IMG/VR virus record: IMGVR_UViG_3300005573_000108
Location: 1 to 57,198 of that record
Strand: one strand, 5' to 3'
Source: a virus
Lineage: Duplodnaviria; Caudoviricetes
DNA: 57,198 nt
Below the pieces are notes generated by a model. The model was given only the letters and a program-made list of their open reading frames with translations, did not search any database and was not told where the DNA came from. This document shows, piece after piece, positions 1-57,198 of the stretch. The stretch's first letter is position 1. Every line of letters begins with the position of its first letter. The position numbers were made by a program, and so were the translations under genes.

Positions 1-2
1 AA

Positions 3-158
3 ATTAAAAGGCTCCCCCTCAATGAGGCCCTCCAGCGCCTCGAGGCCGCCCGGCGGAACTGCCCGGGCAGCCTCTACGAGAGGCACCTGGAGCGGCACGT
101 CCGGATCCTCTTGGCCGGACGGCGCTCCGCCAGCGCCTTCAAAAACATGAAGGCCTAG
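3..158 (+). CDS. 3' part of a hypothetical early protein (5'-truncated)
   Basis: Frame 3 is open from the window start (IKRLPLNEALQRLEAARRNC...KNMKA) to TAG at 156-158, and is followed by hairpins. Confidence 0.45.
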   Translation: MKRLPLNEALQRLEAARRNCPGSLYERHLERHVRILLAGRRSASAFKNMKA

Positions 159-230
159 GGGGGAGCCTGACAATCCCCCCGGCATAGCGGCCTGATGCTG
201 GCCGCATAGGCCCTAGGCGGGCCAGACTAG
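158..230 (+). other. Cluster of three tandem GC-rich hairpins in an early intergenic region
   Basis: gggggga/tcccccc, gcggcc/ggccgc and ggccc/gggcc stems in series. Confidence 0.5.
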
Positions 231-246
231 TAAGGGGGATGGAGTC

Positions 247-7003: not shown

Positions 7004-7303
7004 ATGCCTACGCTAGAAGAACTCAGCGAGAAAAGGTTCCTGCCAGCCGCCGCAGAAGATAGAGCCGAGGAGCTGATTGCAAAGCTAGATCGGAACGTCG
7101 CAGGCGAAGTGATGAAGATCATTGACAAAATAGCTTTGTGGGTGGTCCCCGTTCCCGCTTACAACGGCGGACGGTGCCGCCTCTGTTCCAGCAGGGAATC
7201 TGTGGCCCTGGAATTCCGCACCTCCCAAGTGAAAGTCAAGGTCCTTGGTCTTTGTCAGATGTGTCTGGAAAACTTGAAAGGAGACAGAGGAGACCAGTCG
7301 TGA
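7004..7303 (+). CDS. Hypothetical zinc-ribbon protein
   Basis: AGGAGG RBS; CRLC...CQMC. Confidence 0.7.
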   Translation: MPTLEELSEKRFLPAAAEDRAEELIAKLDRNVAGEVMKIIDKIALWVVPVPAYNGGRCRLCSSRESVALEFRTSQVKVKVLGLCQMCLENLKGDRGDQS

Positions 7304-8115: not shown

Positions 8116-8136
8116 ACCAAACAGGAGGAAGGAATC

Positions 8137-9562: not shown

Positions 9563-9658
9563 GGCCGTCGGATTGCCCGGCTGGGGAGTACGCGCCTCCC
9601 CAGCCAGATGGGTTCCGGGGCGAAGAAGCCGGACGAAGACGGCCAGCGCGTGTTTTTT
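9563..9658 (+). terminator. Structured element or terminator between the convergent early and late operons
   Basis: 10-bp stem ggctggggag/ctccccagcc (9579-9605) inside a ggccgtc/gacggcc closing stem, followed by a T-tract. Confidence 0.55.
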
Positions 9659-21600: not shown

Positions 21601-23894
21601 ATGCTGTTGTTAAGCCCAGTCTGTCTGTAGTGGTCTCGTGGAGGCATCAAGCCAAGAAATTCCACCTTGGGCTTTTCTATTTGCTTGGCTACTCGCTCGT
21701 AGCCCGGCACCGACAAGCGCTCTTTTGCCTCTTCCACCAGAGTCGCATGATATTCCATCGGGTTCTTTACTATTTGCTTGGCCTCTTGCTCGCTGAAGGC
21801 TGGTAAGGTAGCGTAGGCCCCGGGTTGTGGAGGTTTCCAGGCTTTGAGCTCTGAGACCGCAGCCGCTCCTTCTGCCACTGGCGCAGGGGCGGCCTCGGGC
21901 TTCGGCACCTGCTGCTCTTCGCTCGGAACAGGCTGGGCAACCGCTGGAGTGACCGGCACTTCGGGTTGAGGAGCGGCAACAGCTTCTTCTGAGGCTCTGA
22001 CCGCTTCTTGAGCCCCCGCTTCTTTCCCTAGACCTTCTGCCTCTTCTCTTGCCAGTCTTTCTTTTAGTAACTTCATGCCTGCTGGATGTTGAGCCAAGGC
22101 TCGATCCAGATAAGCTCTCATCCTTTCTTTTGCGGCTTTCTTGGCTTCCTCGGTTTTGGCCTTTTCGGCTTCTTTTTGGAGTCGTTCTTCTTCTGCCTTG
22201 AAGTGTTCCTCAAAAGCCCTTGCGGATTCCTCCGCACTCTTGGCCACCACCGTGGGTCCCGGCCTGGGAGTTTCTTCCGCAGGTTTTTCTTCGATTCGCC
22301 AGACAGCGTACCCGCCCTTAACCGGCACCACTTCTGCGGCTATGCCCTGAGATTCGAGTTCTTTTTTGCGTCGTAGTGCAAGAAGTTTGTTAGCGAACTG
22401 AGCTCCCGTCTCGGATTCCGCCCCTGCCCGCGTGGGACGTGTGGGTGCTCCAGCAGGAGGAGTTTCTCCCAATGGCGTCCGAGGAGTTTTCTCTTCCCGG
22501 AGGGGCTCAGTTTCACTGATCACCATCCCGCCACTTCGCCTGGACGCTGCGGCTTCCGCAGTCGGACCGAGGTCCAGTCTTCCGGCCCAATGCTCAATGA
22601 TGAGATCGTTGAGCTGATCTACCAAGCCGAGCTTCTGGATGGCGGGATCTCGCCTCAGTTTGAAGACATCGTCAACACTAAACTCCTCTCCTGCGGGAGT
22701 TTTGCCTGTGGCGAGACTCTCTCTTATCTCATCAAAGATCTGTCTCCGATCTTTCAGCAAGCCGCTCAAATTCTCGCCGACTTTTTCCATTGGGGACGGT
22801 TCGAGCGCTGGCACTGTCCTACTCGCCACGGTACCTACCCCGGCTCCCAGGGCACCAAGTGGTAATGCCACGAGGCCGGAATAGAGAGCATCCTTGGTTA
22901 CCTCTGGTAATTTGTTGATGAACTCGCCGATCGCCTTGATCGTAGACTTGTCGGCCTGTCTTGCCCATATCCTGCTGAACTCATCAGGATATTGCTGGAC
23001 GAATTCTTCAAGCCCTTCCGTCCCCATGCCTACCAAGAAGTCCAAGACCTTCTTGTAAATTGGTCGTCCAGGCTTCCAAGCGTTCAGGACCTTCTCGAGC
23101 CCCAATGTTTCAAGAGGTGTTTGTAGGCTGGCATTCATGATGGAAGCTATGAATGCCCTGTCTTTGTCCACTCCTTCATCCACCAAGTCTGCATAGGTGC
23201 CACCGGCGATCTGGGCGAACATCTGAGTCCCGGCAGTCATCTTTGCGCCTTGCGCGAAAATTTTTGCTGCCTCTTCCGCCCCCAACGTTCTCCCAGCTTT
23301 TTCAGCAGCTTTTATCGCCTCACGGCGCAACAAACCGCCTCCAACACCACCGGTCAGCATTGCGACGCCGAACTGAGGGGCAGTCCGAGCCACATCCTCC
23401 CAAAAGCCGGAACTCTGCTCATCGTATTCTGGACTCGGTTCCAACGCGGGCTTGACACGTTCCCATAGACCAGTGTCTTTTAAGATTTTGCCAGTCTCGC
23501 TGACGCCCCGGGCAACGCTGCCGAAGCCGGGTATTGTTTTGAGCACCCTGCCGACAAACGGGTGCTCTTGTTCCACTTCTCTAGCTGCGACGGGGAACTC
23601 AAGTGTTTCTCTCACCACATCTTTGATGCCTTCTGGAATGGCTCCAGCTATTCTGCCAAGGGTGGCTTCAGGCTGCGGCTCGGGTTCGCCCATCAAACGC
23701 CCTAGACGTCCGTGGCGAGGTCCCTCTGTCTCAAATTGCGACAGATATCTATTTCTTATCTGTTCTTGCCTTTCTTTAGGAAGCGTCCAGAATTCCGTAT
23801 CAGTCATGTTTTCATCGAAGAAATTGGAGCGGACTTTACGCTTCTCTTCCCTCGACAAACTCGCGAATTCGGGATCCTGTTCCCACTCCCACAT
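9657..23894 (-). CDS. Giant (4745 aa) polyvalent virion-injected protein: LPD1-like zincin + DarA C-terminal-like domain + DarB-like adenine methyltransferase + SNF2 helicase + second zincin + helical C-terminal ejection-protein region
   Basis: GVEFGEW...LGLAFGSRG...AHYEP...INLTK..GDGSLAHEWGH...EMFARAFE; YYTP, LEPAAGSG, GVELD, GNVPF; LRPHQK, AHEVGTGKT, VDEAH, SGTP, QRNGRGWR; GHEVTHW; last gene of the virion operon. Confidence 0.9.
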   Translation of the reverse strand: MWEWEQDPEFASLSREEKRKVRSNFFDENMTDTEFWTLPKERQEQIRNRYLSQFETEGPRHGRLGRLMGEPEPQPEATLGRIAGAIPEGIKDVVRETLEFPVAAREVEQEHPFVGRVLKTIPGFGSVARGVSETGKILKDTGLWERVKPALEPSPEYDEQSSGFWEDVARTAPQFGVAMLTGGVGGGLLRREAIKAAEKAGRTLGAEEAAKIFAQGAKMTAGTQMFAQIAGGTYADLVDEGVDKDRAFIASIMNASLQTPLETLGLEKVLNAWKPGRPIYKKVLDFLVGMGTEGLEEFVQQYPDEFSRIWARQADKSTIKAIGEFINKLPEVTKDALYSGLVALPLGALGAGVGTVASRTVPALEPSPMEKVGENLSGLLKDRRQIFDEIRESLATGKTPAGEEFSVDDVFKLRRDPAIQKLGLVDQLNDLIIEHWAGRLDLGPTAEAAASRRSGGMVISETEPLREEKTPRTPLGETPPAGAPTRPTRAGAESETGAQFANKLLALRRKKELESQGIAAEVVPVKGGYAVWRIEEKPAEETPRPGPTVVAKSAEESARAFEEHFKAEEERLQKEAEKAKTEEAKKAAKERMRAYLDRALAQHPAGMKLLKERLAREEAEGLGKEAGAQEAVRASEEAVAAPQPEVPVTPAVAQPVPSEEQQVPKPEAAPAPVAEGAAAVSELKAWKPPQPGAYATLPAFSEQEAKQIVKNPMEYHATLVEEAKERLSVPGYERVAKQIEKPKVEFLGLMPPRDHYRQTGLNNSIPVFIATLDDGKRVPFRLRPDESLEDAAARAQKSGDQDPLYNAMQGFEDDVKETRSVQRWKALQEEIKAKGLNASLVEEQEDGTIVVSDDENDREVKVAPGQTVEQALAEAPAPEATEEPKPEGKETLPEEAKISGLGATPDELIAEFERQVEEAKKTPKIKREIEIKKQMKEKKKAVRDALTDMRRIAKEISEIIGGERGSVSFEEVDPAKWEKVRDKLWEMYDKAVEAGMAMKEFVSLAVHLLGEKGLPYFKKFAKEELPGGRKREEAKPVAPGGEEGEGIIRVGEEGKPKEEKKPKGTKVEKLIDAGEKMAGKRSSKDPRENAEAIRLMIDERTQGRNTLDWVGEVLSIVGKRKTFKPQFAEVASPGLKRYAEFVSATVPTFTEIAARMAGAYRMSKTRWSAPFLDLIATKLQSEEISPKYGGRKYKDWFLEGAAEYQAAIERLSDIFSKAVSVEEAFQSLKENLLSDKEKHAPSGRFQTLLSGNAEQIEAELTDYGKLLYKALTGRVYRLFRSFDSYDSFVEKEQVEIVGPQPIERVSTPLMQITTPAKYRDGKNVAGDDLIKTYGLRGVEFGEWTEATHRQQSVNLAYDSLAMLAEAIGAPQRGIGLGAGTAFQLGLAFGSRGHGKAAAHYEPGNHVINLTKTRGDGSLAHEWGHALHYMGSRTITLENNTNYKYRSYSPFDDLMEALKAREDIDSVERDVDQILRGLWGHASQADRIEAAKNLLQYPGRYKSKTAFFKNALALDKNVEGKYWSKKEEMFARAFEAWVSRKLDADNAYLVDKAFVSPGFVKEHFNQPDAYPSQEESEYFDGLFDRFFSSIEWGEDGVPRLSADYVPVTVQIDIEVREAMKRIEEKLDSILRAIYQGKPSQNDLYWYAYTVSTRGEAMQPPNYEAFDDDYRREGQREDSEIKGAVGYASPLKTEQVISYGLIPVKLEGRTTIVTVEVKDGDLRDWRESFAGEVEGEVSDEGKKPGGGVVAPVGDGNLGQGGGRPGGPDIAPGGESTVRGGTGHAPIGPNVRGSLDAEGEKALKDVQKAQRKDYTIKQGDIDQGRSLAKRFQDNLAAIRILRKLEAENRLATEEEQAILVKFSGWGGLGPALAHYPTEQWRNRSEVLRNILTPDELSSARESSLTAYYTPPEVISQMWDMVQRLGFRGGRVLEPAAGSGHIIGMMPEPMRDLSSVVGVELDPVTAKIAAQLYQTRTILNSPFEEAAMPLEYYDLVVGNVPFHEIGPYDPLHNPGGKLNLHNYFINKSLDLLKPGGLLVTLTSTYTMDTQDTSAREMFSRKADLVAAIRLPNGIFADAEAGADLLIFRKKGTDLPELPATPDWIQTRTERLPYVYESGTLHTEITGKAEARINNYFFEKSTHVLGKIGFNPGQNRTITIGSLDNIGEQLERIAETLPAGIFMKDREMDFDPLAGIVKEGEIRDGAYFIRDGKVYVNESGAPVLYKDAGGRTGKEAEARVKGMVQIRDQVHKLLRLQGERQPEVTISAERAQLRKLYDAFVKKYGPLNNVKNVRLFAKDPDAYLLLGLEEYDEVTGKVESLAAIFTENTLAPSPPTTAKDADEALLISLGWRGRVDLAYMSQLAGMDQNRLVQALGDKIFDDPQRGWITKEEYLSGDVAAKLQVAEAAAKLDPAFERNVKALQAVLPDPLPPEEIRWQLGASYLSPETIVAFIEDLIPGAQNVRVTRCEALGSWSIDFTSGYTRRNANYYRDMARNSYESTHVWGVVGESGGRLDFFDLLDAILNGKTPVVREPSTGAGTRPAIDRAATELAIQRMQRIREEFRAWLLKSKNTQIARGEAERYNKRFRTFVAAQWNGEHLAFPGKVPNELISLRPHQKAAVYRYLRSGRLYLAHEVGTGKTYTMIAAIMESKRLRLHKRAVMVVEKKTVPDIRAAFSRLYPGARVLYLEVPGDKAKRKQALGRLATDQYDAVVLTRESFAKIPLSPEMRAEFVRNEAEKLESYLTQAKNSGVRGGKQLRLVEKALLRLRAQLQRYLDMERDDVPTFDKLGIDMLVVDEAHAYKNLAFFTNLKNVKGINPTGSHRSMDLFAKTQYLLGRYGRGVLFASGTPLTNSVGELYTISRYLQYPELENRGLTAFDAWANTFGTIARETEPAIEGGGYREATRFQRFINLPELMDLTRQVLDIVKFDDVVALGKKLKRPEIKGGKPIAVTVPPNPAVKAYQEILKQRAMAVRLNPLEAKYNDKPDNILVIATHARLMAMDPRLLFPDEHDYKDTKTNYAVKKILEIYKEKRPAIDWSTGEDYEEAKHVQLVFSDRGTPKGSGFSVYHDLRDKLIAGGIPAEQIAIVHEYTKEDEVKRLHRRINNGQVRVVIGSTPLLGIGLNIQQRVSAIHHLDVDWNYSNYAQRNGRGWRWGNRIKEIEIYNYGTEGTIDAFMWDKIAMKERVLSQVLSTGAVPREVEDISQEAIQAEEMVALLANDPLAKEKIDLEARVRQLDNEYQWFLRKRAQAKRRLDHEIDADIETAKRKIEFGGESLDILDKIKAVRIPDKFLGHDVAAGTKSKLRDFYSIEKHGPEINKIVRDLVKLFKAGTKLEHKFGEVGQIVTEKVSYLEEEPYVETVEGKEIKKTRQVEKQKEVQKFVPLEGQTASLYLKIDPSDKTYEVILKTNANSGFVAQITDTFSLASNINYYRESVQKRIAEAQEAIQSLERERSALQQEMAKTFDLDELSQAKARLQQVTEELVRRQAEAERQWRSERGNTVEVRDGRLIYDIDVSEFIVKPTEEELAASRADMDPSDTVIEILNEEERGKGEAEPMAEETSGPRPVAEMLSLDEAKQFFKGQKVFRTSAGSIVVQTKNGDYVEIRTVEKISSSNVSFEIAYGKKFDKTTTIISGTYKAGTIRLSKQAKSHPIIVLGHEVTHWLEDIGLLNDLEVAALRNEIRKLHREGKYKTLNPKAIGGSEDRANYIAQKLFERRFPEGIIGRILTKISDWADRLLTALTRQPTARSVVRKIESGEIFERKVTTQKFLRAGGFQLMTEEQTKLTERLAALRTNPFDAVRKPIEPKEESQPPDHLKVATARIQADAEAFLVTMARTLKSYLPSNLPTGSFLEQLLRTAEWWDHEVLRGVFRAAHARTDRVVEIFREIDEGTVALGTETNSVTEATNQLKTKGLTRKEILMGKTSKEYKQLMDMLEYGDTQFNKGTMTPEEAMDAQEEYWRKKGVSDQVIAVWKAHRAAYDRALELQMAPFNELLDMLKEKEAHRIAMELAPENLKAVLKKAKRGKAIEVAMSQFPPKLKQKLQARLEAVDIKEFVTGQGRSLTLKQVLAEMGKLKGTYAPRIRAGGWVVKGTKGKNEIRYHETNRFAAERTRLRLQREGWEVDAVQEVRRLPEEVYEHIKVMDTQALIDRAAAGLEKKDPDLFLAFRKDLLEEVAREIMARGYRSHRIRRRPGPVVKGYIEDPLERYVRYTSNISAGIAKSEAAYQMIVTLNGSWDENGKRIGGIDPAKEPRAYQMAQRYIAEQLRNSDGVDRFIGMAKAIATLKYLGLPNVRAPFVNLTAMATTVPASIHEYVGGGKVPFTRVVKEVAVALRDYGRWMTKKKRTGLTNDEMALLDAIQRRQWDNPQYIQDASGAIQGALGRRFRMAVDGALFLFSKTEQLNRGATMLAAYRVARRLGADHASAAYKARECMEKAHGIYGRATLPAIAQGTNPLARVSQAYYVYMKFGHNYSQMLYDLGLKKKNYRAFAWALSSQAVIGGAMSTPFAVIGWTILKAILAPFTDRDPEKWWWDQVRDNLGPYGEQTVRYGLVGAAGADISGSLAFDPAVPKNLRELTGALGGVAGDIADAYHYWMTGQPVRVAETVLPVGVANIFRAIRELNGAVTKTGNRVWDENGYPYLPGTGATVLRLLGFRSAERAMLQERQWEAKRQASAFSERRNDLYEEYRAYLSGQDVALDELWDAIARYNEEVVQGGYTNYVPVITKQSLRRQLLDMARPTKRELAIAQE

Positions 23895-36520: not shown

Positions 36521-37495
36521 TCAGCTCAGATTGGAATGCGCGATATGGGCCTTTCTGTTGTTGCAGATCGTGTTGCCGTCGCAGAGGATCTTCATGGTCT
36601 TGTCCTGGGGCGAATCGGCAATGATCTGCCACGGCGTCCTGACGAAGTACCCATTCTGGTGAATGGCGTAGCCAAAGTGATTCGAGTTGAGGGCAATGGC
36701 ATAGCCACTCGGGCAGAAATCGTCAGGGAAGATGTCCTTGCCCTCGAAATAGAGACCAGTGAAACCAGCCTTGACGGTCTCCTTGCCGTCTGTGAAACGC
36801 TGCTGGACCTGCAAAATGTCGGCGATGACGTTCCACAGTGTTTCCGTGGTCACCACCAAGTCCGGCTTCCCTCCCGCCCCATCCCTCACTTTGGCGGTAG
36901 TGGCCATGGTGCGAAGGACGTTGAGAGTGATATTCTCGGAAGTGGTAGTGCGTCTTCCCACCCACGGCTTGGTCCCGTCGGCGGCAACTAAGTCATCCTC
37001 CGCGATGCCCCCGTACGCGACAGTGGAACTGGTATTGCAGCAAGCAAGCAGACCAGTGAATCGGTTGCTCGCATTGCCTATGTCGTCATACAGACTCTCG
37101 GCGAGGACTTTGGTGATACTCTTCTGGGCACCGGAGACTCGTTGAACCACGAGTTGGACTTCCGCGTACTCCCCCGAGTTTTTCAGGTCATCGATTCGAT
37201 AGATGGTCGCATTGGCGTAGGCGTGCTTCCAGTCGAATCGTGCAGCGTTGACCGAACTTCTGTCGTCTGAAGAAAGAGTGTCTCCCTTGGAGTAGAAGCC
37301 AGCTTCCTGGCCGTCATATTCCAGGGGGATCCGAATGTGCTCACCTCCCGGGGGCCTCTCCCATAGGCCCTTTTGCTGTTTCATCAGATAGTTCATGAGG
37401 AAGGAAGTTCTAAAGTAGATGTCAACCGCCTTCCCCTCGTCTGCCATGAAGTAGTGTCTGGTGATCGCTTCCAGTTCTGTCAGACTGAGTGGCAT
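36521..37495 (-). CDS. Major capsid protein (HK97 fold)
   Basis: 324 aa after the scaffold; GGEHIRIPLEY, ARFDWK, N.GE..V.LV, FTGL, YGGI, KPDLVVTT, AGFTGLYFEG. Confidence 0.9.
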   Translation of the reverse strand: MPLSLTELEAITRHYFMADEGKAVDIYFRTSFLMNYLMKQQKGLWERPPGGEHIRIPLEYDGQEAGFYSKGDTLSSDDRSSVNAARFDWKHAYANATIYRIDDLKNSGEYAEVQLVVQRVSGAQKSITKVLAESLYDDIGNASNRFTGLLACCNTSSTVAYGGIAEDDLVAADGTKPWVGRRTTTSENITLNVLRTMATTAKVRDGAGGKPDLVVTTETLWNVIADILQVQQRFTDGKETVKAGFTGLYFEGKDIFPDDFCPSGYAIALNSNHFGYAIHQNGYFVRTPWQIIADSPQDKTMKILCDGNTICNNRKAHIAHSNLS

Positions 37496-45560: not shown

Positions 45561-47804
45561 CTAACGTGTTCGTATGCGGTTATCGGTCTTGATCCCTGCC
45601 ACGCCTTGTCCTTTGGCCTGCCGGGTTCGCAAAAGCGGTTCATCGCTTCCGGTCCCCAAGGACGTTTCTATTTCGTGGACCACCTTGGCCCTGTCGGTCT
45701 TGAGTTTCTCCTCGTCAAACTTTATTCCGCCGAGCATCGTGTATTGCTTCACTTTTTCGGTGGTGATTTGTTCTTGGATGAGCATGGTTTGAGCTCGTCT
45801 GTATTCGGCTTCGGCTTGGGCCAGGAGAGCCTTGCTTTGGCTCTCCATCTCCATTGCACCTTCTTGTGGCGAACGCTGTGGAGAAGAAGACAGTATTTGG
45901 GCAAGGACGGCATTGAAGGAGGGAAACTCTCCCTGTTGTACGGCCCTTTGAAGCTCCTTGGGCTTCATTTGCTCGACCTGATTGATCCAATCGAGAATTT
46001 CGGGAGCCACTCCTGCTGTTTCCATTTTGGTCTTCAGATCATTGAGAGGCCCGAGGGCCATCCTACGCAGGATTTCTTTACGATTGCTCCAGTTGAGCTT
46101 TTTGAGCAATTCCTCGACATCACAGCCGCCTCTGTTGAAAATCTCAATGGCTTCTTCGCGTTCCTGAACTCTGGAGACTGGCATCGTGGAACCGGTCACG
46201 ACAGTGATTCGACCCGGGAGGATCAAATCTTTGCCCGTTATCTTTTCGGTATAGATTTCCCCCTCATATTCGATTGGGATCAGGCGTTCTTCGGTGTACC
46301 AGTTCTGGGCCAGGGCAACATACATCCTGCCCCGCTGCCTGATCATGCGACTATAGTTACGAATCTTGCCCCGGAGCATCGTGGCGGCTCTTTCGATGAG
46401 GGCCGCGATAGCTTTATATGCTATCACGTCTCTCCCTGGACCTTGCGCTTGCTCCAATTCAAATTGTCCAGCAACGATGGCGAACAAATCTTTGTAAACG
46501 CTTAGGATGGCAGGCAAATCTTGCGGGGGCTCCGGTCCGCTCATGTATCGGATCGCATTGGCCGCCATTTCGTTTGAGGGCTCTATGACGCTTGCGGTAT
46601 TGGAAAATTCCGTGCTATCAACGCCGCTCGTCTTGGGATTGATGATCTTCAGTCTTGAAGCTTTGTCTTTGTAGTAGGTCCACTGGGAAATGGTTTTATT
46701 GATTTCAACTTGGAGGGTCTCAAGCTGCTCGAAGTCGCTCATGCCCCAGATGCAGTTGGGGTCCGTTAGCGACGGCGTCAAGCTGAATGGAAACTTGTCC
46801 CAGAGGTAGGTCTTGCGGGCAAGCTCCTTTGGGAGCAGCGGGTTGATCGACGGATTGGGACGATCGTCAAGGACCAGATGCCCGCCGTTGCAAACGGTTA
46901 TGCATCTGATGCAGCCTGGGTATTTGGCTTCCCCTGTTTCTTTGTCAATAGTATAGTCCTTGACCCAGAACTCTGCGATCAAGCAAGTTTTATGATCACG
47001 TGTTGGGGCGATATCTTTGCCCACCAATGCCCGCACCACGCCCATTATCTTGGCCATGTAACTTCCGCTTTGATCTTTGCCGTAGACGAGTTCTTTTCTT
47101 GAGTCGGAGATCTCTTTGATCCATTCCTCATCCGGCTTGATCTCCTCTTTCTTCTCCGGCCACCTGAGTATTGCCTCCCACAGTGGCATGGGTCTGTAAT
47201 GGACGACCACGGTTGCTTTTTGAATATCTTCGACGTCGCTCGGATAGATTCCGAAATAAAAGGGGTCTATAACGGAGACTTCGACTTCGCCGCCCTCCTC
47301 GCCACCGATGTTGAGCAAAACATATTGTTTTGTCTCAGGATTATAGGCTATCTCACCAGGGTAGTATGAGACCTTTTCAATGGTGCATCCGTACGTCTCG
47401 CCCTGGATGATTGATCTTTCCAAAACACTTTGTTGTTCCGTTTCATTCCACCAGTACTCGCAAGCTTTTACCAGAATGTCGTATTGGAGAGAGTCCGACA
47501 TTCCTATCCTCGTCACGTCGAACGTAGGATTGTTGTCTGTGAGAAGATTTACTGTTCGCTGCCTATGAGCATGGAGCAAATTGGCTGTAAGGAGGCTGAC
47601 GTTTTTGGGATTGAGTCGCCAATGTTTGTTCTTGCCAAGCTCGTAATGCCTGTTCCATTTGTCAGCTAAGCCCAAACGATTCTTTTCGGCGATGATATCG
47701 GCGAGAATTCTAAAAAGAGCCTGCCCAAGCTCGGGATCATTCTCGGGCGGGATCAGCGACTGATAATTGTCCGTCTGGGCTTCAATCGTCGATTCCAGCC
47801 CCAT
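45561..47804 (-). CDS. Portal protein (P22-like)
   Basis: 747 aa downstream of TerL; IDPFYF..YP, FPFS, WGMSDFEQL..LQ.EINK..SQ, AI.ALIE; helical C-terminal barrel. Confidence 0.9.
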   Translation of the reverse strand: MGLESTIEAQTDNYQSLIPPENDPELGQALFRILADIIAEKNRLGLADKWNRHYELGKNKHWRLNPKNVSLLTANLLHAHRQRTVNLLTDNNPTFDVTRIGMSDSLQYDILVKACEYWWNETEQQSVLERSIIQGETYGCTIEKVSYYPGEIAYNPETKQYVLLNIGGEEGGEVEVSVIDPFYFGIYPSDVEDIQKATVVVHYRPMPLWEAILRWPEKKEEIKPDEEWIKEISDSRKELVYGKDQSGSYMAKIMGVVRALVGKDIAPTRDHKTCLIAEFWVKDYTIDKETGEAKYPGCIRCITVCNGGHLVLDDRPNPSINPLLPKELARKTYLWDKFPFSLTPSLTDPNCIWGMSDFEQLETLQVEINKTISQWTYYKDKASRLKIINPKTSGVDSTEFSNTASVIEPSNEMAANAIRYMSGPEPPQDLPAILSVYKDLFAIVAGQFELEQAQGPGRDVIAYKAIAALIERAATMLRGKIRNYSRMIRQRGRMYVALAQNWYTEERLIPIEYEGEIYTEKITGKDLILPGRITVVTGSTMPVSRVQEREEAIEIFNRGGCDVEELLKKLNWSNRKEILRRMALGPLNDLKTKMETAGVAPEILDWINQVEQMKPKELQRAVQQGEFPSFNAVLAQILSSSPQRSPQEGAMEMESQSKALLAQAEAEYRRAQTMLIQEQITTEKVKQYTMLGGIKFDEEKLKTDRAKVVHEIETSLGTGSDEPLLRTRQAKGQGVAGIKTDNRIRTR

Positions 47805-48453: not shown

Positions 48454-48728
48454 TGATCCTCCACGGTAGAAACTCTACCTGCGCTTGAGATATCACCAAA
48501 AGCTGCTTTTGTAAAGATGTCAGGTTCTTCCTCTCCAGTTGGCTTAGAGGATCCCTTTTCTTTCTGGTAAACGATGCGCATGTCATTGGAGCCAATCACT
48601 ATCTTTGCAGAAGCACGTCCCAGGTAGAAGCCAATCAGGATGAGACCAGTGGTGAGAGACAGAACTGCCAGTATGACGAAGGGGATGTCTGCCGCGACAA
48701 GTTCAAAGCACAGTTGGTGCATAGTCAA
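48450..48728 (-). CDS. Small membrane protein
   Basis: Single hydrophobic helix FVILAVLSLTTGLILIGFYLG. Confidence 0.6.
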   Translation of the reverse strand: MTMHQLCFELVAADIPFVILAVLSLTTGLILIGFYLGRASAKIVIGSNDMRIVYQKEKGSSKPTGEEEPDIFTKAAFGDISSAGRVSTVEDQ

Positions 48729-50406
48729 ACTCCTCTTCTGTCAGCTTGTAATCGTGAGGCATCTGAATGACTCCGAAGTCTGCGGCTCCGAATTCCGATC
48801 CCACGGTTGGAAAAATTTTTTGGCTTATCTCTCCCTCTCTCATGGCCAGGAACTCGAACTGATCTTGCATGAGGGGTTTTTGCAACTGTTCGATCCGGTA
48901 GTCCCAGAAGTGCCTGCGGTCTTTTGGAGCTTTAGCGAAGATGGGCCTGGCCATGCAAATTTGGGCGGCAGAGTCGTATGGATGGTCTTCGGCAGTGGTG
49001 TCAACCTGTTCTATGCGAAGAGGATCCATCGGTAAGGCAGCGATTGTCCGAATAAATTCCGTGCAGTTCTTGTAGACCACGAGCATCGGCATCTTACCGT
49101 CTTCGCGGACTCGCAATCTTTCTCGGAACTGCCTGAGTTTGAGATCGCGACTGGCATCGGCCTTGTTCAAGAAGATACCCTTGTTGGCAAAGATCTCGGC
49201 TGTGGAGGGGCCTTGGCCCCCGCCTTTGTAATCTGGCTTCTTGTTCCAGCAATCGTGTCCGGCAAGTCGCAGGATGGGTTTGTTTGTCAACCGCACGGTA
49301 AAATCTTTGAATTCCATTAGCCTTTCTATCTGGAGTATTCCCTCTGCGATAGCCGAATCCGTCAGACGGATGCCCTGGTTTGGCTGGCCATTCCAGCCAT
49401 ACCATTCCCAAAACAAATAAATTCGTCCATCAGCGTCAACCCACCACCAGCCGATATGGAAGGGCTTACCGTAACCCCAGTCGAAGGTCATGTAAATTGG
49501 CGCGTAGGACGGGATGGGCACGGGGTCAATCACGTGCGTAGCCACTGAAAACTCAGGGAACGCCTGCCCGAGGTAAATGTTCCAGTCGCCATCCCGATAT
49601 GCCTTCCTCATGGCTTCAGGAAGGGTATTGAGTGAATCCCAGTAGGACTCATCCAAGTAGGGGTTGTCGTCGGCTTTTGACGGGATGTAGGCGAACTGGC
49701 TTCGGAGGTCTTTGGGTTTTAGAAATTCGTCAGGGAATTTCCTATCGATCCACAGCATCTTCACCCAGCCGTGCCCTACGCCGCCGGGGTTCGTGCCTCC
49801 TACGAATTGAGCTTCGATATCCGGGAGGTATTGCCATCTGAGTCGAGTCCTGAGCAGTGAGAACTTTTCGTAACTATTTTTGGTGAGTTCGTCAACCAGG
49901 ATGGCGGCGAACTCAGCACTGGCGTACTTGGATGGGTCGTCGAGGTTACGAAAGCAGATGACCCCGGATCCCTTTTCCGGCGGGAGGATCCAGCATCTTC
50001 CATAGACCTTGTGGTCATCGTGTAGTTTGCCGAAGCCTTGATTTGTGAATTCGACTTCAATTTTGGAGAGTTGACGGTCTTTGAGGCTGGGGTAGTCTTC
50101 GCAAGCCAGCATCACTGCTGCATTGTTCCAGCCTTGTCTTTTCATCCAGAGGAGTCTTCGGAGAGCATACCATCGCAGCAGATAGGATTTGCCGCCGCCC
50201 ATCGCTCCGCCGTAGAGGAGAAATTTGACTTTGCCACTGTCGAGCAAGCGGATAGCGTCCATCTGTCGCGGAGTGAACTTCGCTATTTCGGTATCGAAGT
50301 TGCGTCTAGCGACGGTGGTTTCTTTGGGGGACTCAGCTTCCACTATCTTGTTCCTCTTCTTGCTCAGGCGATTCCTTGGGTGGCTCAAGGAAAACGCCCT
50401 GGTCAT
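48703..50406 (-). CDS. terL: Terminase large subunit
   Basis: YGGAMGGGKS, LVDELT, GTNPGGVGHGWVK, DNPYL, FDWGY.KPF, EDHPYDS; the true start may be GTG at 50343. Confidence 0.95.
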   Translation of the reverse strand: MTRAFSLSHPRNRLSKKRNKIVEAESPKETTVARRNFDTEIAKFTPRQMDAIRLLDSGKVKFLLYGGAMGGGKSYLLRWYALRRLLWMKRQGWNNAAVMLACEDYPSLKDRQLSKIEVEFTNQGFGKLHDDHKVYGRCWILPPEKGSGVICFRNLDDPSKYASAEFAAILVDELTKNSYEKFSLLRTRLRWQYLPDIEAQFVGGTNPGGVGHGWVKMLWIDRKFPDEFLKPKDLRSQFAYIPSKADDNPYLDESYWDSLNTLPEAMRKAYRDGDWNIYLGQAFPEFSVATHVIDPVPIPSYAPIYMTFDWGYGKPFHIGWWWVDADGRIYLFWEWYGWNGQPNQGIRLTDSAIAEGILQIERLMEFKDFTVRLTNKPILRLAGHDCWNKKPDYKGGGQGPSTAEIFANKGIFLNKADASRDLKLRQFRERLRVREDGKMPMLVVYKNCTEFIRTIAALPMDPLRIEQVDTTAEDHPYDSAAQICMARPIFAKAPKDRRHFWDYRIEQLQKPLMQDQFEFLAMREGEISQKIFPTVGSEFGAADFGVIQMPHDYKLTEEEFDYAPTVL

Positions 50407-51127
50407 TCTTTCGCATGTCTACTACGGATTCGGCCTCCAGCAAAGCCTTAGGTCCCTGTGGCAGGGGAGTTTCTCTTGCGACGACCAGAAGGATTTGGTC
50501 TGGAGAGTCCGAAGCTAGGGATGGCAGTTCTTTGAGTCTGCGGATCTCCGCCGAGAGTTCGAGGGCTTGGATCTTTGGGTGCATTTCGACTCTTGTGCGT
50601 CTGATTATTTTGCCGTCGTTACCGATTATTTCTTTCTGTTCGATGATCCTTATGGTGCGTTGGTCCTGTTCGCTGATTTCGGAAAAGGGTTTGACTTTGA
50701 GCTCAGCTCCCTCAAATTCAACAATCTTTGCTATGTTGGACATAGCCAAGTTATCGATTTCTTCTAAGATTTGTCTTGCGTTGAATTTGGATGCAGAGGC
50801 TATGGCTTCATTGTAATTGAGCAGGTATTCTCTCACCTTCGGATTCTTCATCAACCTATGCGCGGCGGCTGTGGCAGTGATAGCTGAATAGCCAGCACGT
50901 AAGGCCGCTTCTGTCTTGCTCATGGCGGGGTTAGCTTTGAGGGCGTTGACGAACGCCATCTGCCGTTCAGTCAGTCCTTTCCAGTTCATTGGGGCAGTTT
51001 CTTGTAGTTCTTTTATTCTTTCGGGTGTGTATACCTTCGGAGGGCCGATTGGCTTTCTGGGTTTCTCATATCCTCGTTTATATGGATACAATCTTCCGTC
51101 AGGAGTATAGTTTTTTGAGCCAGCCAT
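50333..51127 (-). CDS. terS: Terminase small subunit
   Basis: LTERQMAFV, EAALRAGYS..TA...A.RLMKNPKV, K.QALE; upstream of TerL. Confidence 0.9.
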   Translation of the reverse strand: MAGSKNYTPDGRLYPYKRGYEKPRKPIGPPKVYTPERIKELQETAPMNWKGLTERQMAFVNALKANPAMSKTEAALRAGYSAITATAAAHRLMKNPKVREYLLNYNEAIASASKFNARQILEEIDNLAMSNIAKIVEFEGAELKVKPFSEISEQDQRTIRIIEQKEIIGNDGKIIRRTRVEMHPKIQALELSAEIRRLKELPSLASDSPDQILLVVARETPLPQGPKALLEAESVVDMRKNDQGVFLEPPKESPEQEEEQDSGS

Positions 51128-52482: not shown

Positions 52483-52868
52483 CAGTCTTCTCCTGCTTCA
52501 AAGTGGTATGGATCGTGTGGGGTTTTCCATCTTCCTCCCCATCGGCCTCCGAGTGATTCCCAAAAGCGTCCGAGCTCTTCGTATCTGGGATCGTCTCTCC
52601 ATCGTATTTCATCTGGATCGATTTTGCCATCTTCGTTGACATCATCGATCAAGGCGAAGTCCATGGCAAGCCATTCTTGGTGCTTGGAAAATCTGACTTT
52701 GCTTTTGCCTTCCAAGAAAAGCCTGGTTTGTTCTTCTTGTGTGCGGTGGAAGGTGAAGCAGATGACTTGAATCTCATTTTGGGCGGCGAAGTCGAGGAGC
52801 TTAGCGATGCAGAATAGGAATTTGACGCGCTTGGGGATCTTTGCTAGTGCTGGGGTAGGCGAGTTCAT
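52479..52868 (-). CDS. Endolysin, peptidase M15 family, with an EF-hand-like loop
   Basis: RT.EEQ..L, SKH...LAMD, WGGRW...D..HFE; insertion DVNEDGKIDPDE. Confidence 0.9.
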   Translation of the reverse strand: MNSPTPALAKIPKRVKFLFCIAKLLDFAAQNEIQVICFTFHRTQEEQTRLFLEGKSKVRFSKHQEWLAMDFALIDDVNEDGKIDPDEIRWRDDPRYEELGRFWESLGGRWGGRWKTPHDPYHFEAGEDW

Positions 52869-52887
52869 TGATTCCCCCTCCCCTGAA

Positions 52888-53430
52888 TTATCTCTTTTGA
52901 TATCGCTTTTTTGTGCCGGAGTCAATAGGGGTCAAGTGGGTTTTGGGTTGGGGTTTCAAGGGTCGAGGAGGGCGCAGTTGGTTTATGGACAATCTGGCTT
53001 GGTGAAGTAGTGGGATGCCTCTTTCTTGGAACATAGCGATGAGTTCGGTGGGGCTGTCGCAGAAGACTCCTATCCCATTTCTCCTGTTTATCTGATATAG
53101 AAATTCGAGCTGAGCGGTTTCTGTTTTGGTGAGCTGTCGTGATGCGTTGTCGGGTGGGATCTTTCCGGGGGCTTTGACTTCTATGCCGAAAAAGACGCCT
53201 ATGGTTTCGACCCCCCGGTCGAGTAGAGAGCGGATATTGACGGGGATGAGGCCCACGAAATCGGGTATGCCCGGGGGCATGAAGGGGTTCCCCCAGTTTT
53301 TCCAGAAAAGCGCGCCCGAGAGACTGAGGACCTGTTTGATACCATCGGCGACGAGCTTTTCCTGAACTTTGCTTGAATTGGGGTTGGGTCTGCGCCGTGG
53401 CTTTTTGTTACTGTTGGGAGTCGGCGGCAT
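52888..53430 (-). CDS. VRR-NUC family nuclease (probable Holliday junction resolvase)
   Basis: E......I, PGIPD, GIEVKAPG, Q.EFL. Confidence 0.85.
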   Translation of the reverse strand: MPPTPNSNKKPRRRPNPNSSKVQEKLVADGIKQVLSLSGALFWKNWGNPFMPPGIPDFVGLIPVNIRSLLDRGVETIGVFFGIEVKAPGKIPPDNASRQLTKTETAQLEFLYQINRRNGIGVFCDSPTELIAMFQERGIPLLHQARLSINQLRPPRPLKPQPKTHLTPIDSGTKKRYQKR

Positions 53431-53761
53431 TTGTTTTCTCCTGTTGCTTTAGTTGGCGCTGTGCCATTTTTTGGCGACGTCTTCGTTCGGCGCAGTCATC
53501 GCAGTAGAGGTTTCTGTGTCGCCTGATTTCACTCCTGCGCCGCCATATTTCCGTGCGGCAGTCTTTGCATAGAGTTTCCCTCCATGCCTGGCCCTTGTCA
53601 GTGGGCACTCCTCTTTTGTTGAGGATTCGGCGGACGTGGGTGCCGCTGAGCCCGAAGTAAGAGGCTATCCTCTCAGAGCTGAGGAGTTGATCGACGTAGA
53701 GGGTGACGATCTCGTCGTTCCTTTCCTTGTGTCTTTCTTTGGGGACCTTGGGCTTTTTCAA
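53408..53761 (-). CDS. HTH plus zinc-finger DNA-binding protein
   Basis: RNDEIV.LY....SSERIASYFGLSGTHVRRIL; CKDC...CDDC; TTG start after GGAGGTG. Confidence 0.7.
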   Translation of the reverse strand: MKKPKVPKERHKERNDEIVTLYVDQLLSSERIASYFGLSGTHVRRILNKRGVPTDKGQAWRETLCKDCRTEIWRRRSEIRRHRNLYCDDCAERRRRQKMAQRQLKQQEKTNAADSQQ

Positions 53762-53809
53762 TTTGACTCACCTCCCCCTCGTTGGAGTGGTTCTTGTGGC
53801 ATCAGTTCT

Positions 53810-53881
53810 ACAATGCCCTACATGTTGGGAAATGTCAATCCCAAAAAATCGCTTGACATAGGTGGGGAGGGTCTGTAGAAT
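53810..53881. promoter_or_regulatory. Divergent promoter region
   Basis: + strand TTGACA(53853)-17 nt-TAGAAT(53876); a back-to-back - strand TTGACA at 53838-53833 faces the late operon with only a poor -10. Confidence 0.7.
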
Positions 53882-53966
53882 CTCGGCCCAGTTTGGTCCT
53901 CTGTCTAGCTTTGGGGGGTCAAACTCTTGAGAATACAAGATATTGTGGAGAGAAAGGAGGGGAGAG

Positions 53967-54512
53967 ATGGACGTGAGCAAGATGGTGGAAGAGTGGTATG
54001 AGCGGCACGGGTCTGACTTGGTGGAATGTCCTTTGTTCATCAAGCCTGTGCGGCGTTGTGTGGCCAGGGCTATCAAGGCACGGCCTCGGTCATTGCGGCT
54101 CGATCAGCTTTTTGCTAAGAGTCACTCTGGGACGGGCGGTTGGGACTATCTGATTGGGGTCAACAGGATGGACACGTTTTTAGTGCGTCCGAAGGAGTGT
54201 CTTTCGAGTTGCAAAATTTGTTCAAAAAAGTCCTCAAAAGCCCCCCGTTCAAACCGTCAATATTCTGACGCACGGTGCCAATCTTTTGACGCCCCTAAAA
54301 TTGCCCGAAAAAGCCCCCAAAGGTTGACAATTGCCTCAAAAAGCACCTCTCGCCGTCGTTCGGCAAAGTCTCGAGACACCTTTAACCGTGATTCAAGCGT
54401 GGGAGTTGATTCAGATTGTATTCATGTTCGTACAGTTCCAAACTGTTCCCATATGAGTACAATCTCAAAAAACGATTCCCACGATGATTCAGAGGTTCGG
54501 GGTGTCGCCTAA
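53967..54512 (+). CDS. Hypothetical protein (Cys-containing N-terminus, low-complexity tail)
   Basis: AAGGAGG RBS; downstream of a consensus promoter; the C-terminal half looks shaped by A-tract DNA. Confidence 0.5.
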   Translation: MDVSKMVEEWYERHGSDLVECPLFIKPVRRCVARAIKARPRSLRLDQLFAKSHSGTGGWDYLIGVNRMDTFLVRPKECLSSCKICSKKSSKAPRSNRQYSDARCQSFDAPKIARKSPQRLTIASKSTSRRRSAKSRDTFNRDSSVGVDSDCIHVRTVPNCSHMSTISKNDSHDDSEVRGVA

Positions 54513-54613
54513 ATGAAAAAGGTTAACTCAACTCAATTGCCGATCACATTGGTGTCAAATCTATTTATGCAAAACGTCTGTTCTTTGCTCAAAAAAGGGT
54601 TTTTCGCACCCAT

Positions 54614-54668
54614 AGCCCCTTCGGAGACCCTTCGAAGCCCCTCCGAAGGCCCTTCCAAGGCCCTTCGT
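54614..54668 (+). repeat. Five 11-bp iteron-like repeats upstream of the replication gene
   Basis: agccccttcgg / agacccttcga / agcccctccga / aggcccttcca / aggcccttcgt. Confidence 0.85.
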
Positions 54669-54692
54669 ATAGCCTACCAAAGGAGGTAAGGA

Positions 54693-55826
54693 ATGAGGCA
54701 GTATTCCAAAATCAGCCCGAACTTCTGGACCGGCAAAACAGGTAAGGAGATTCGCAAGTTAGGCCCGGAGGTCCAGGTGATAGCTCTGTATCTTTTGACG
54801 TGTCCGAATTCCAATATGTTGGGTTACTACTATTTGCCTTTACCAGTGCTTTGCCATGAAACTGGAAGCCCCTTCGAAGGGGCTTCGAAGGGCCTTCGAA
54901 GCCTAGAAAAAATCGGTTTTGCCTATTATGACCCGGAATCTGAGCATGTTTGGGTCAAAAAAATGGCGCTCCATCAAATCGGCCCCGATTTGCAGCCTAG
55001 CGATAATCGTATCAAAGGACTAGAGAAAGAGATTCGGTCTTTACGTAAGGGGGCGTATTTCAACGACTTTCTTGCTTTCTACAAAGACCGTTTTCACCTC
55101 AAAAACATAGAGCCCCTTGAAAGCCCCTCCGAAGCCCCTTCGGAGCCCCTCCCGAGCCCCTCGGGAGCCCCTCCGAAGCATAGAGATAGAGATAGAGATT
55201 TAAAAAATAAAAAACACAGTACTTTTGCTCCGAGCGCTTTCGAAAACAACCAAAACCGCTCGGAGCCGCCTGTCCATATTTTCGACATTCTTTCAGACCC
55301 AAATCTCCAACACCAAGAGAACCTCCAGGGCGAGGATGAAGCCAGTGACCCCACGCTCTTCCTCCCCGAGAAAGCAGAAGAGAAAAAGATTCCCCCCACC
55401 CGTAGAAAAAGAACCACCACCACCACCAGCACCACAGCAGCAGCCACGGCGAACGACTCGCAGATCGATGCCCCCCCTCCCGTAGTCCTTATCCCCCTCA
55501 CAGACAAATCCGAATTCGCAGTCTCACAGGCCATGGTGTCAGAGTGGAGCGAGGCGTTCCCAGCTGTTAACATCATCCTGGAACTCCGTAAAATGCGCCA
55601 ATGGTGCCTCGCTCATCCCCAGAGACGTAAAACCAAACGCGGCGTCAAAGCTTTCATCGTCTCATGGCTCTCAAGAACCCAGGACAAGGGAGGATCCCTC
55701 AACGGCAACGGCGGATCACTCGAAGACCCCTGGAGCGCCTGGAAGGAAAAACTCCAACTCCAACAACAACAACAGCAACGACTACAGCAGCAAATTGAGG
55801 AGCAAGAGGAGGAGGTGCCACTATGA
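54693..55826 (+). CDS. Phage replication initiator (lambda O-analogous)
   Basis: N-terminal wHTH-like MRQYSKISPNFW...LYLLTCPNSNMLG; C-terminal EW..AFPAVN...EL.KM..W....RRKT.RG...FI.SWL.R.QD; internal iterons. Confidence 0.85.
   Translation: MRQYSKISPNFWTGKTGKEIRKLGPEVQVIALYLLTCPNSNMLGYYYLPLPVLCHETGSPFEGASKGLRSLEKIGFAYYDPESEHVWVKKMALHQIGPDLQPSDNRIKGLEKEIRSLRKGAYFNDFLAFYKDRFHLKNIEPLESPSEAPSEPLPSPSGAPPKHRDRDRDLKNKKHSTFAPSAFENNQNRSEPPVHIFDILSDPNLQHQENLQGEDEASDPTLFLPEKAEEKKIPPTRRKRTTTTTSTTAAATANDSQIDAPPPVVLIPLTDKSEFAVSQAMVSEWSEAFPAVNIILELRKMRQWCLAHPQRRKTKRGVKAFIVSWLSRTQDKGGSLNGNGGSLEDPWSAWKEKLQLQQQQQQRLQQQIEEQEEEVPL
55111..55215 (+). repeat. Probable replication origin: six 11-bp iterons plus an AT-rich tract
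   Basis: agcccct-NNNN six times at 55111-55176, then (tagaga)x3 and tttaaaaaataaaaaa. Confidence 0.8.
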
Positions 55827-56260
55827 TCAACGATACCCTGTTCCAAAGCGAAATGAACAAGCTCATGGATCGCTTCGCCTGCAAACTAAAACCGGATCAG
55901 ATAAACCAATACTGGGAAAGCCTCCGTAACCTCGACCCCAAGGCCTTCCGCTCCGCTGTCTCCACCCTCCTCGCCGACGATAACGTCTCCCGCTTCCCAC
56001 TCCCTATCTCCATCGAACGCCTCGCCAATAAACTCACCTCCACTTCCTCCGAAGACCAATCACACTCAGAAGAATACATGAAAAACCGCATCGAAATGCT
56101 CGAACGCTACAGAAAAAAATACCAGGACCTCTACGACCAACAGTTCCTCCAATACGGCCAAGCCACCGGCCACGTAGAGTCCAAACTCAAATGGCTCTCA
56201 GATGAACTCTATAAACTCAAACCCTATAACTCTAATAATCCCAATCACTTGGATCACTAG
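55823..56260 (+). CDS. Putative helicase loader/inhibitor (G39P-like N-terminus)
   Basis: YWE.L..L....F..AV..L......RFP.P..I; ATGA-coupled to the initiator gene. Confidence 0.55.
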   Translation: MINDTLFQSEMNKLMDRFACKLKPDQINQYWESLRNLDPKAFRSAVSTLLADDNVSRFPLPISIERLANKLTSTSSEDQSHSEEYMKNRIEMLERYRKKYQDLYDQQFLQYGQATGHVESKLKWLSDELYKLKPYNSNNPNHLDH

Positions 56261-56427
56261 AACAAAAAAAGAGGCCTCTAAAACGCGCTAGAAGCTCCAA
56301 AAACCACAGGGGAGGCATAAATGTAGGGGGAAGAAAAAAACTCCTCGCCTGGAGCCAGAGAGAGGGCAAAATCGGGGGGATTCGCCAAAGAGCTGAACCC
56401 CGAAATCGAAAACCTATACCGACTTCC

Positions 56428-56472
56428 GAGAGGGGGATGGGACCCATACCCCTCCGGCTACCCCTCTTTTTT
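56428..56472 (+). terminator. Possible terminator of the replication operon
   Basis: gagggggatgg/ccatacccctc stem, with an alternative pairing to cccctct followed by a T-run. Confidence 0.4.
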
Positions 56473-56610
56473 CCCCGGGTTTTTGGGTCCCCTGAACGGT
56501 CTAGTTGCCGCGGAGGGGGTACGCCCGGGGGCGCGGGAGACGGGGAATGCGGGGGGGTGGGCGGGTGGTGGAGGCGTAGACGGCGGATCTGCGGCCCATC
56601 TCGGGCGAAA

Positions 56611-56638
56611 AGTTAACATAATGTATATTATCCGACTG
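56611..56638 (-). other. dif-like XerC/XerD recombination site
   Basis: The - strand reads CAGTCGGATAA-TATACA-TTATGTTAACT; the XerD arm is 10/11 identical to E. coli TTATGTTAAAT; 11-6-11 layout in non-coding DNA. Confidence 0.85.
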
Positions 56639-56939
56639 TGTAGGGATTCCCTACACTGCCACACTGTGGTGTGTAGGGAAACGCAACACAAGCCCGACTG
56701 AAACGCTCAAACTAACAACTATTAACACGCGCTAACCCCTCGAAGTTATTAATGTTTTCGCCCCTCCATCCCTCTTTCTTGTGACATTTTGTTGCTGCCG
56801 TATCATTTTATATACTTCGTCGCGCCCCGTCCGCCAACCAGATTACCGGAAAGCGCACGGAAATCGCTCAGTTCCGAGTTGTTATTAGTTGTTATTTTTT
56901 GTTGTGCCCCTCTTCTGTGGTGGTCTCCCCTGGTCCCCA

Positions 56940-57009
56940 GAAAAAAAAGAAAAAAAAATTCGTGACCATGCATTTTTTGCTTGACAAGGTGGGATGCATA
57001 TGGTATGTT
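56940..57009 (+). promoter_or_regulatory. Strong early sigma70 promoter
   Basis: A-tract UP element, TTGACA(56981)-17 nt-TATGTT(57004) with extended TGn; AAGGAGGTG RBS downstream. Confidence 0.8.
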
Positions 57010-57046
57010 ATTGACAAACATAAAACTTACTCAAAGGAGGTGTGCG

Positions 57047-57198
57047 ATGTACGAAATCACGATTAAAGTCAGGAAAAGCGACGGGGCGGACTACCCCGCA
57101 GAATGCGCACTCTGCGGGGCCCCCGCGGAGCTCGCGCACTATCGCATTCTGGCCCCCGAAGGGGGCCTCTCCGGGGCAGTGTGTGAGGACTGCCTCGG
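57047..57198 (+). CDS. First early gene, zinc-finger-like (runs off the window end)
   Basis: AAGGAGGTG RBS; MYEITIKVRK...CALC...CEDC, open to the end. Confidence 0.7.
   Translation, partial: MYEITIKVRKSDGADYPAECALCGAPAELAHYRILAPEGGLSGAVCEDCL

Follow-up and report, generated by a model that had tools for sequence, protein, structure and literature searches.

A dif-type site carried by a tailed phage without an integrase, and its possible use by host Xer recombinases

Exploitation of the Xer recombinases of the host is an established route to lysogeny, which the literature searched describes only among Inoviridae and Microviridae, among phages of the double jelly-roll or Corticoviridae-like kind, and in a few islands, one of which is the 57-kb gonococcal genetic island (GGI). 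Here we describe a 28-bp dif-type site, arranged as 11-6-11, on the minus strand at 56611..56638 of the IMG/VR virus record IMGVR_UViG_3300005573_000108, a stretch of 57,198 nucleotides that was analysed over its full length and is called the window below. We consider it probable, at roughly 0.6, that this 28-mer is a working substrate of the host Xer recombinases in a tailed phage that itself lacks a recombinase. Xer exploitation itself is known, and what appears to be new is that a tailed phage devoid of an integrase has a dif-type site: no report of Xer exploitation by a tailed phage was found in the searchable full-text literature, a scope outside which subscription journals and supplements lie.

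The integrative mobile elements exploiting Xer (IMEX) include phages such as CTXphi, VGJphi and TLCphi, the Microviridae proviruses and gokushoviruses, and the dif-type double jelly-roll and Corticoviridae-like phages. Like the phage described here, they have a dif-like site and no integrase of their own, and their dif-like phage attachment site (attP) is recognised by host XerC/XerD (PMC12715192, PMC5357621). In the attP of the classical IMEX, as described, the XerD arm is degenerate or the central region is either longer or altered (PMC3025954, PMC5357621), and certain double jelly-roll phages have a mimic of dif over its full 28 bp (PMC12715192). In contrast to these small and non-tailed phages, the phage of the window is tailed, has a near-perfect XerD-type arm and a 6-bp centre, gave no match to XafT/DUF3653, and was found in no integrated form. 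The GGI, a 57-kb IMEX, shares with it the size class, a 28-bp dif-like site and, if our reading is right, the reliance on host XerCD (PMC5357621). It is a conjugative-type island and not a virus, and its divergent XerD arm blocks FtsK-driven excision (PMC5357621); the window shows the opposite, in that its XerD-type arm is good and the XerC-type arm is the slightly unusual one.

Canonical 11-6-11 sites on replicons other than the main chromosome are also known as dif2 in Vibrio and pdif in Acinetobacter, where host XerCD acts on them to resolve multimers or to exchange modules (PMC2533119, PMC6449649). Those replicons are stably inherited and have partition functions, whereas ParA/ParB were not found in the window, which has a single site; a pdif-type module for its strain-variable cassette was considered and rejected, as the window holds no second site. 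In cer and psi a Xer core site lies near the origin region and the reaction is governed by additional sequence on its XerC side, about 180 bp of accessory DNA to which PepA binds together with ArgR or ArcA being required (10.64898/2026.02.23.706985); in the window a palindrome abuts the XerC-type arm and might, by its position, be a counterpart of that accessory sequence. Finally, phage P1 resembles the phage of the window in being tailed and in having one site-specific recombination site, loxP, at which Cre resolves dimers of the prophage plasmid (Austin 1981, as cited in PMC5357621), with the difference that P1 encodes its recombinase and the phage of the window would rely on that of its host.

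The site and its counterparts in bacteria

Sequence inspection and motif matching show that the minus strand of 56611-56638 reads CAGTCGGATAA-TATACA-TTATGTTAACT. The XerD-type arm occupies 56611-56621 (plus strand AGTTAACATAA, reverse complement TTATGTTAACT), the central region of 6 bp 56622-56627 (plus strand TGTATA, reverse complement TATACA) and the XerC-type arm 56628-56638 (plus strand TTATCCGACTG, reverse complement CAGTCGGATAA). With two 11-bp arms in partial dyad symmetry around a 6-bp centre, and with ATAA and TTAT as the inner bases, it has the layout of a dif site. Compared with dif of Escherichia coli K12, as printed in Carnoy and Roten 2009 (PMC2731167), the XerD arm, described there as the best conserved part of dif, is identical at 10/11 positions, the centre at 4/6 and the XerC arm at 6/11. 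The initial annotation had described a 28-bp 11-6-11 site with a near-perfect XerD arm, located in the largest non-coding region and with a spacer inverted relative to E. coli dif, and each of these points stands: TATACA is the reverse complement of the E. coli TGTATA, the region (56261-57046) measures 786 bp, and agreement with the best of the bacterial sites listed reaches 26/28.

A 13-base core defined a priori, ATAA-N6-TTATGTTAA, has a single occurrence in the window; over 100 dinucleotide-preserving shuffles the mean was 0.01, and base composition gives an expectation of about 0.001 per window. A looser degenerate dif pattern likewise matches once (0.10 expected). The site is thus single-copy in the window, as the rule of one per replicon requires; the sole other match at no more than two mismatches, at 13351 inside a giant open reading frame (ORF), is not dif-like.

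The 19-base core ATAATATACATTATGTTAA was then compared with bacterial dif sites across phyla, by scanning about 186,000 species, each represented by a single genome. It is present in at least 120 bacterial genome contigs, against about 4 expected by chance (596 Gb, both strands), and the matches listed include Sphingomonadales, Brevibacterium, Bacteroidia, Lentisphaerae, some Bacillota, Acidobacteria and others. By their sequence these are the expected chromosomal sites of those taxa, and since a core with the TATACA centre is so widespread among bacterial genomes, the "inverted" centre is an ordinary natural variant. Among the matches listed, 4 of 119 extracted sites are identical to the phage 28-mer at 26/28 positions, namely L084 and L088 (Acidobacteria, Vicinamibacteraceae; both GAGTCCGATAATATACATTATGTTAACT), L033 (Sphingomonadales) and L107. 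The dif-type site is single-copy in all five bacterial genomes checked, as dif is, and in a sample of the phylum of L084 a site within three mismatches was present in 4/401 genomes. Alignments (blastn) between the phage non-coding region and 120 host loci are confined to 22-33 bp at the site, so that the likeness is that of a discrete site and not of a captured fragment of a host terminus.

The XerD arm is close to the conserved TTATGTTAAAT type and identical (11/11) to those of the genomic sites L084, L088, L071 and L078. The XerC arm CAGTCGGATAA falls within the natural range, as seen next to GAGTCCGATAA (L084, L088) and CAGTCCGATAA (L033), and an XerC-type arm TCGGATAA is also present in the viral contig L216. 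The suggestion of the initial annotation that the XerC arm could help to identify the host holds in part: among the matches listed it points to arms of the Acidobacteria, Sphingomonadales and some Bacillota types and so narrows the host loosely, and the host clade may lie outside the at least 120 core-bearing contigs listed. A search for the host through the terminase large subunit (TerL) in the Atlas returned viral clusters only. The site could also serve to mark the host, since its arms and centre follow the host dif.

The phage genome and similar sites in other viruses

The window is classed as a linear virus record with a CheckV completeness of 95% and a GC content of 52%, and its sequence is present in two hot-springs metagenome runs. 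All its structural genes discussed here lie on the minus strand: a terminase small subunit (50333..51127; PF03592, E 3.5e-16), TerL (48703..50406), a portal protein (45561..47804; phrog_156, E 1.3e-25) and a major head protein (36521..37495; phrog_9953, E 1.7e-27). Terminase, portal and a major head protein of the HK97 type together identify it by sequence as a tailed phage (Caudoviricetes), in line with the initial annotation, and podophage status is plausible because the nearest cultured relatives in TerL are Pelagibacter and Roseobacter phages of about 54 kb (26-31% identity).

The same annotation recognised no tyrosine or serine recombinase, and six-frame searches of the window at E<=10 agree with it (0 matches each for PF00589, Phage_integrase, and PF00239, Resolvase). 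It had also named an integrase outside the window as an observation that would overturn its reading. A contig of 4847 bp from another metagenome (L139) makes this unlikely, though less firmly so for the exact strain of the window, whose cassette differs: it matches 52836-57198 at 99.66%, continues with 376 extra bases and then matches 232-337 at 100%, and since it joins position 57198 to 232 the map closes on itself as a circle across a mere 376 bp. In the strain of L139 nothing lies in the join but the end of a 62-amino-acid zinc-ribbon-like ORF and the beginning of the small ORF that follows it.

The 19-base core occurs in 84 IMG/VR contigs (loci L148-L227; genomes G411-G427), a set gathered with the core of the window itself, which shows that such phages exist and says nothing of their frequency. 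None of the 17 searchable core-bearing contigs of at least 29 kb matches PF00589, and Terminase_6N matches 9 of 16 large ones, 7 of them above the cut-off. The terminase-bearing G415 (39,246 bp, GC 29%) has terminal repeats and is 100% complete. The site lies between longer ORFs in all six genomes inspected (GC 29-38%), with an ORF of 59-64 amino acids overlapping it in two, and no family is common to the genes that adjoin the site across six other phage genomes. Core-bearing viral contigs form several families with XerC-type arms of their own, e.g. TTGTTATATAA, AAAGGTTATAA and TTTTCGCATAA. The smaller contigs, with CheckV completeness of 4-67%, are more suggestive of mid-size genomes in fragments than of microviruses; Phage_F was found in 0/50 of the small ones, an uninformative result as the control was also silent.

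In G415 and the contig L124 (JAFRFD010000049.1, 40,887 bp) the site is kept after the same small ORF and is identical at 24/28 positions, with flanks that cannot be aligned and proteins that are 60-86% identical, a comparison that is biased by the discovery of L124 through the shared core. L124 is binned in a metagenome-assembled genome of Methanobrevibacter, which is either a binning error or a clue to the host. Another genome of the set, G426 (63.8 kb, terminal repeats), carries a GroEL-type chaperonin (Cpn60_TCP1, E 1.4e-47; L235 17224-18810) 2.7 kb from its dif-like site; a GroEL link between G426 and L112 was judged coincidental.

Cultured phages provide a further case. A 42-nt query matched 17 records of Listeria Homburgvirus, and in Listeria phage P70 (NC_018831.1, about 55360-55388; L329 2494-2521) the site reads ACTTCCTATAA-CATACA-TTATGTTAACT, identical to the genomic site L038 at 27/28 positions and located in a gene-free gap of about 830 bp. 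No PF00589 match was found in P70. The site is invariant in all six aligned Homburgvirus genomes, but the 522-column region around it is 99% identical and thus offers no test of constraint. Literature searches of the same scope as above found no paper that links Homburgvirus to Xer or dif. A 23-nt match in Staphylococcus Twortvirinae (vB_Sau_Clo6, L330 1494-1526) was rejected as a promoter look-alike, TTGACA-17-TATACT, and illustrates that partial dif matches in AT-rich phage DNA can mislead.

Possible roles and competing explanations

If the Xer systems of E. coli and Vibrio are a guide, one host recombinase of the XerC/XerD pair, or of its orthologues, would bind each 11-bp arm, two such sites would be brought together, and strand exchange would take place at the edges of the 6-bp centre. 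Recombination between phage copies would then interconvert multimers and monomers of a circular 57-kb genome, and recombination with a chromosomal dif would lead to reversible co-integration, as in IMEX. We infer binding, catalysis, partner site and benefit to the phage alike from the sequence.

As for the role maintained by selection, integration at the host dif, together with excision from it, is conceivable, if rather improbable when taken singly; to our knowledge all phage-borne dif-like sites with an established function are attP sites, and the full 28-bp mimicry by some double jelly-roll phages, together with the lack of partition genes here, also counts for it. Resolution of multimers of a persisting circle, which we regard as unlikely, would be in keeping with a canonical site that adjoins a replication module, unlike the degenerate sites of classical IMEX. 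Some other use in the lytic cycle, such as circularising a terminally redundant genome, is doubtful; Cre/lox of P1, which also circularises the injected genome, would be the analogue, and room for such a role is left by the lack of a recognisable lysogeny or plasmid module and by the treatment of Homburgvirus as lytic. For Bacillus subtilis, the account in PMC5357621 states that no direct activation of CodV/RipX by the translocases is known, which makes Xer recombination away from the septum conceivable in such hosts.

Several observations weigh against the use of the site by host Xer enzymes. The initial annotation had named a lack of conservation in relatives as an observation that would overturn its reading, and formally this applies: the closest complete relative (G001; 58,087 bp, terminal repeats, TerL at 60%) has no credible site. 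This has little force as a test of conservation, because G001 shares the structural block alone with the window, and of the TerL relatives covered (six loci) it is the complete one. Homologues of the DnaD-like replication gene, which an alignment query found after a single-protein query had given none, lie in 80 viral loci (788 kb); strict dif-like matches in these numbered zero, and ten loose ones were not dif-like. The only other copy of the site in the lineage, in the near-identical strain L139, is identical across the whole non-coding region and carries no information on constraint. As in the initial annotation, ParA/CbiA (PF01656) and ParB (PF02195) are not detected (0 matches, E<=1, six-frame window), nor are DUF3653 (XafT), an HTH_3 repressor, FtsK_gamma or FtsK_SpoIIIE at the same threshold, so that no lysogeny or plasmid module backs either of the persistence roles. 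Homburgvirus phages are presented as suitable for biocontrol (PMC6787319), and a genus treated as lytic fits neither lysogeny nor plasmid life. Integrated copies or hybrid junctions at the site were absent from the contigs of two runs, which is weak evidence as contigs drop rare variants; and TerL was found in 0/8 genomes with the closest of the dif sites listed, an empty answer that shows little.

The proposal that the phage integrates at host dif or persists as a circle by means of host Xer thus stands in part. The dif-type site and the lack of an integrase speak for it, and no attL/attR junction in the contigs of the two runs, prophage relative in those eight genomes, close plasmid relative in PLSDB, or repressor or partition gene in the window was found. 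Among the 120 host dif loci listed, the only phage relative is L124, itself a phage-sized contig. TerL matches among plasmids (PLSDB) are all below 31% identity, none of them close, and measured against phage-plasmids, which combine plasmid replication and partition genes, the window falls short: a DnaD-like loader is present and ParA/ParB gave 0 matches. GenBank phages include no DNA relative of 54000-57198, and viral contigs contain no exact match to a 23-mer of the site. At the site itself the contigs of the two runs pass straight through (25,975 nt, covering 53000-56848; 509 nt, covering 56399-56907). All loose ends listed for these runs fall at 55126-55792, none at the dif-like site, and a GCA repeat at 55760-55792 in the DnaD-like gene attracts unrelated contig pieces and explains those at 55760 and 55792.

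The site could instead be a relic, either the scar of a past Xer event or a recently acquired host dif, that is now neutral and unused. The absence of the site from G001 and from the 80 loci with a homologous replication gene, the lack of accessory lysogeny or partition genes and the lytic-looking annotation all agree with this explanation. Yet a neutral 28-mer should decay, and here arms and centre are intact, at 26/28 identity to living dif sites; similar sites recur in unrelated phage genomes, always between genes; and G415 and L124 retain theirs while the flanks diverge, with the bias of that pair noted above. We regard a relic as unlikely.

Alternatively, the 28-mer could be bound by a protein of the phage (an unrecognised recombinase, an initiator or a repressor) as part of an origin or early promoter, its likeness to dif being incidental or convergent. 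Repeats, a perfect palindrome and a strong promoter surround the site, a replication gene is near, most early ORFs belong to no family, and AT-rich mimics exist, as the Twortvirinae promoter demonstrates. On the other hand, 26/28 identity over the full 11-6-11 layout in a genome of 52% GC is hard to reach by convergence, and the motif is single in the window, whereas an operator or iteron would recur; we regard this explanation as rather unlikely. A pure chance match in an AT-rich patch, although the scanning of many motif types in the initial annotation entails some multiple testing, is very improbable, since the core alone is expected no more than 0.01 times per window and the arms beyond it also agree with real sites.

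Use of the site by host Xer recombinases remains the reading we prefer, and it tentatively suggests a wider one, which we hold with less confidence. Integrase-less tailed phages of many unrelated lineages, among them this hot-spring phage, complete terminase-bearing IMG/VR genomes and the cultured "lytic" Listeria Homburgvirus, might carry host-type dif sites and use host Xer as a hidden step of their life cycle, be it reversible hitch-hiking at chromosomal dif, a monomeric persisting circle or the closing of the injected genome. If this were true, Xer exploitation would extend from small non-tailed phages to Caudoviricetes, a missing integrase would be insufficient to call a phage strictly lytic, and some phages classed as such would have a persistence or recombination step that depends on host enzymes. 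This is relevant to the prediction of lifestyle from metagenomes and to the choice of phages for biocontrol, and the Homburgvirus sites make the question testable at the bench, beyond an uncultured hot-spring virus.

The surrounding region and other features of the genome

The non-coding region that holds the site (56261..57046) extends from the stop codon of a 145-amino-acid ORF of no family (55823..56260, plus strand) to the ATG at 57047. It contains three minus-strand ORFs of 71-77 amino acids, two with no PHROG match and one with a match at E 0.046, and the minus-strand ORF that covers the dif-type site has a low-complexity, proline-rich translation. No Rfam family matched in the region, and 56258-56610 showed no unusual RNA fold (z -0.60).

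A perfect 9-1-9 palindrome, GTGTAGGGA-T-TCCCTACAC, at 56638..56656 shares one base with the XerC-type arm and looks, from its sequence, like a protein-binding site. A third copy of its half-site, TGTGTAGGGA, follows on the plus strand 14 nt past the palindrome (56670..56679), and the exact half-site 10-mer occurs nowhere else in the window. Beyond the palindrome there are an A-run and iteron-like repeats (56709..56898), comprising a tandem AGTTGTTATT x2 at 56877-56896 and an inverted partner at 56709-56727, which are a candidate origin. A sigma-70-like promoter on the plus strand (TTGACA-17-TATGTT, 10/12; 56981..57009) precedes the start of a small cysteine-rich, zinc-ribbon-like ORF (57047..57198, plus strand; DZR_2 E 0.0013, below the cut-off), which runs off the end of the window and has 62 amino acids in L139.

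Two genes upstream of the dif-type site lies the gene of a DnaD-like helicase loader or replication initiation protein (54693..55826, plus strand; phrog_1701, E 1.1e-41), whose homologues have PF09524. The 786-bp region may accordingly be read, from this arrangement, as an origin and early-control region with an adjoining recombination site; plasmids, too, keep resolution sites close to origins.

The ends of the window fall in a strain-variable cassette on the plus strand (57148..57198 and 1..231; homology to L139 resumes at 232), which is represented by 376 unrelated bases in L139 and by at least two further variants in contigs of run X1, and this hypervariability accounts for the contig break. 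The cassette sits right after the early promoter and may hold fast-evolving early genes.

Elsewhere the genome encodes a holin and an M15 endolysin, and its early block includes an AAA ATPase, a DHH phosphoesterase, a PD-(D/E)XK nuclease and the DnaD-like loader, among ORFs most of which have no family match; tRNA genes were not found. One minus-strand ORF of 4745 amino acids (9657-23894) makes up a quarter of the genome, and its residues 216-338 alone match G001. At 7138-9534 a PD-(D/E)XK exonuclease is followed by a 465-amino-acid phrog_3657 protein of unknown function, and the two are possibly a phage recombination pair, which would raise the formation of multimers.
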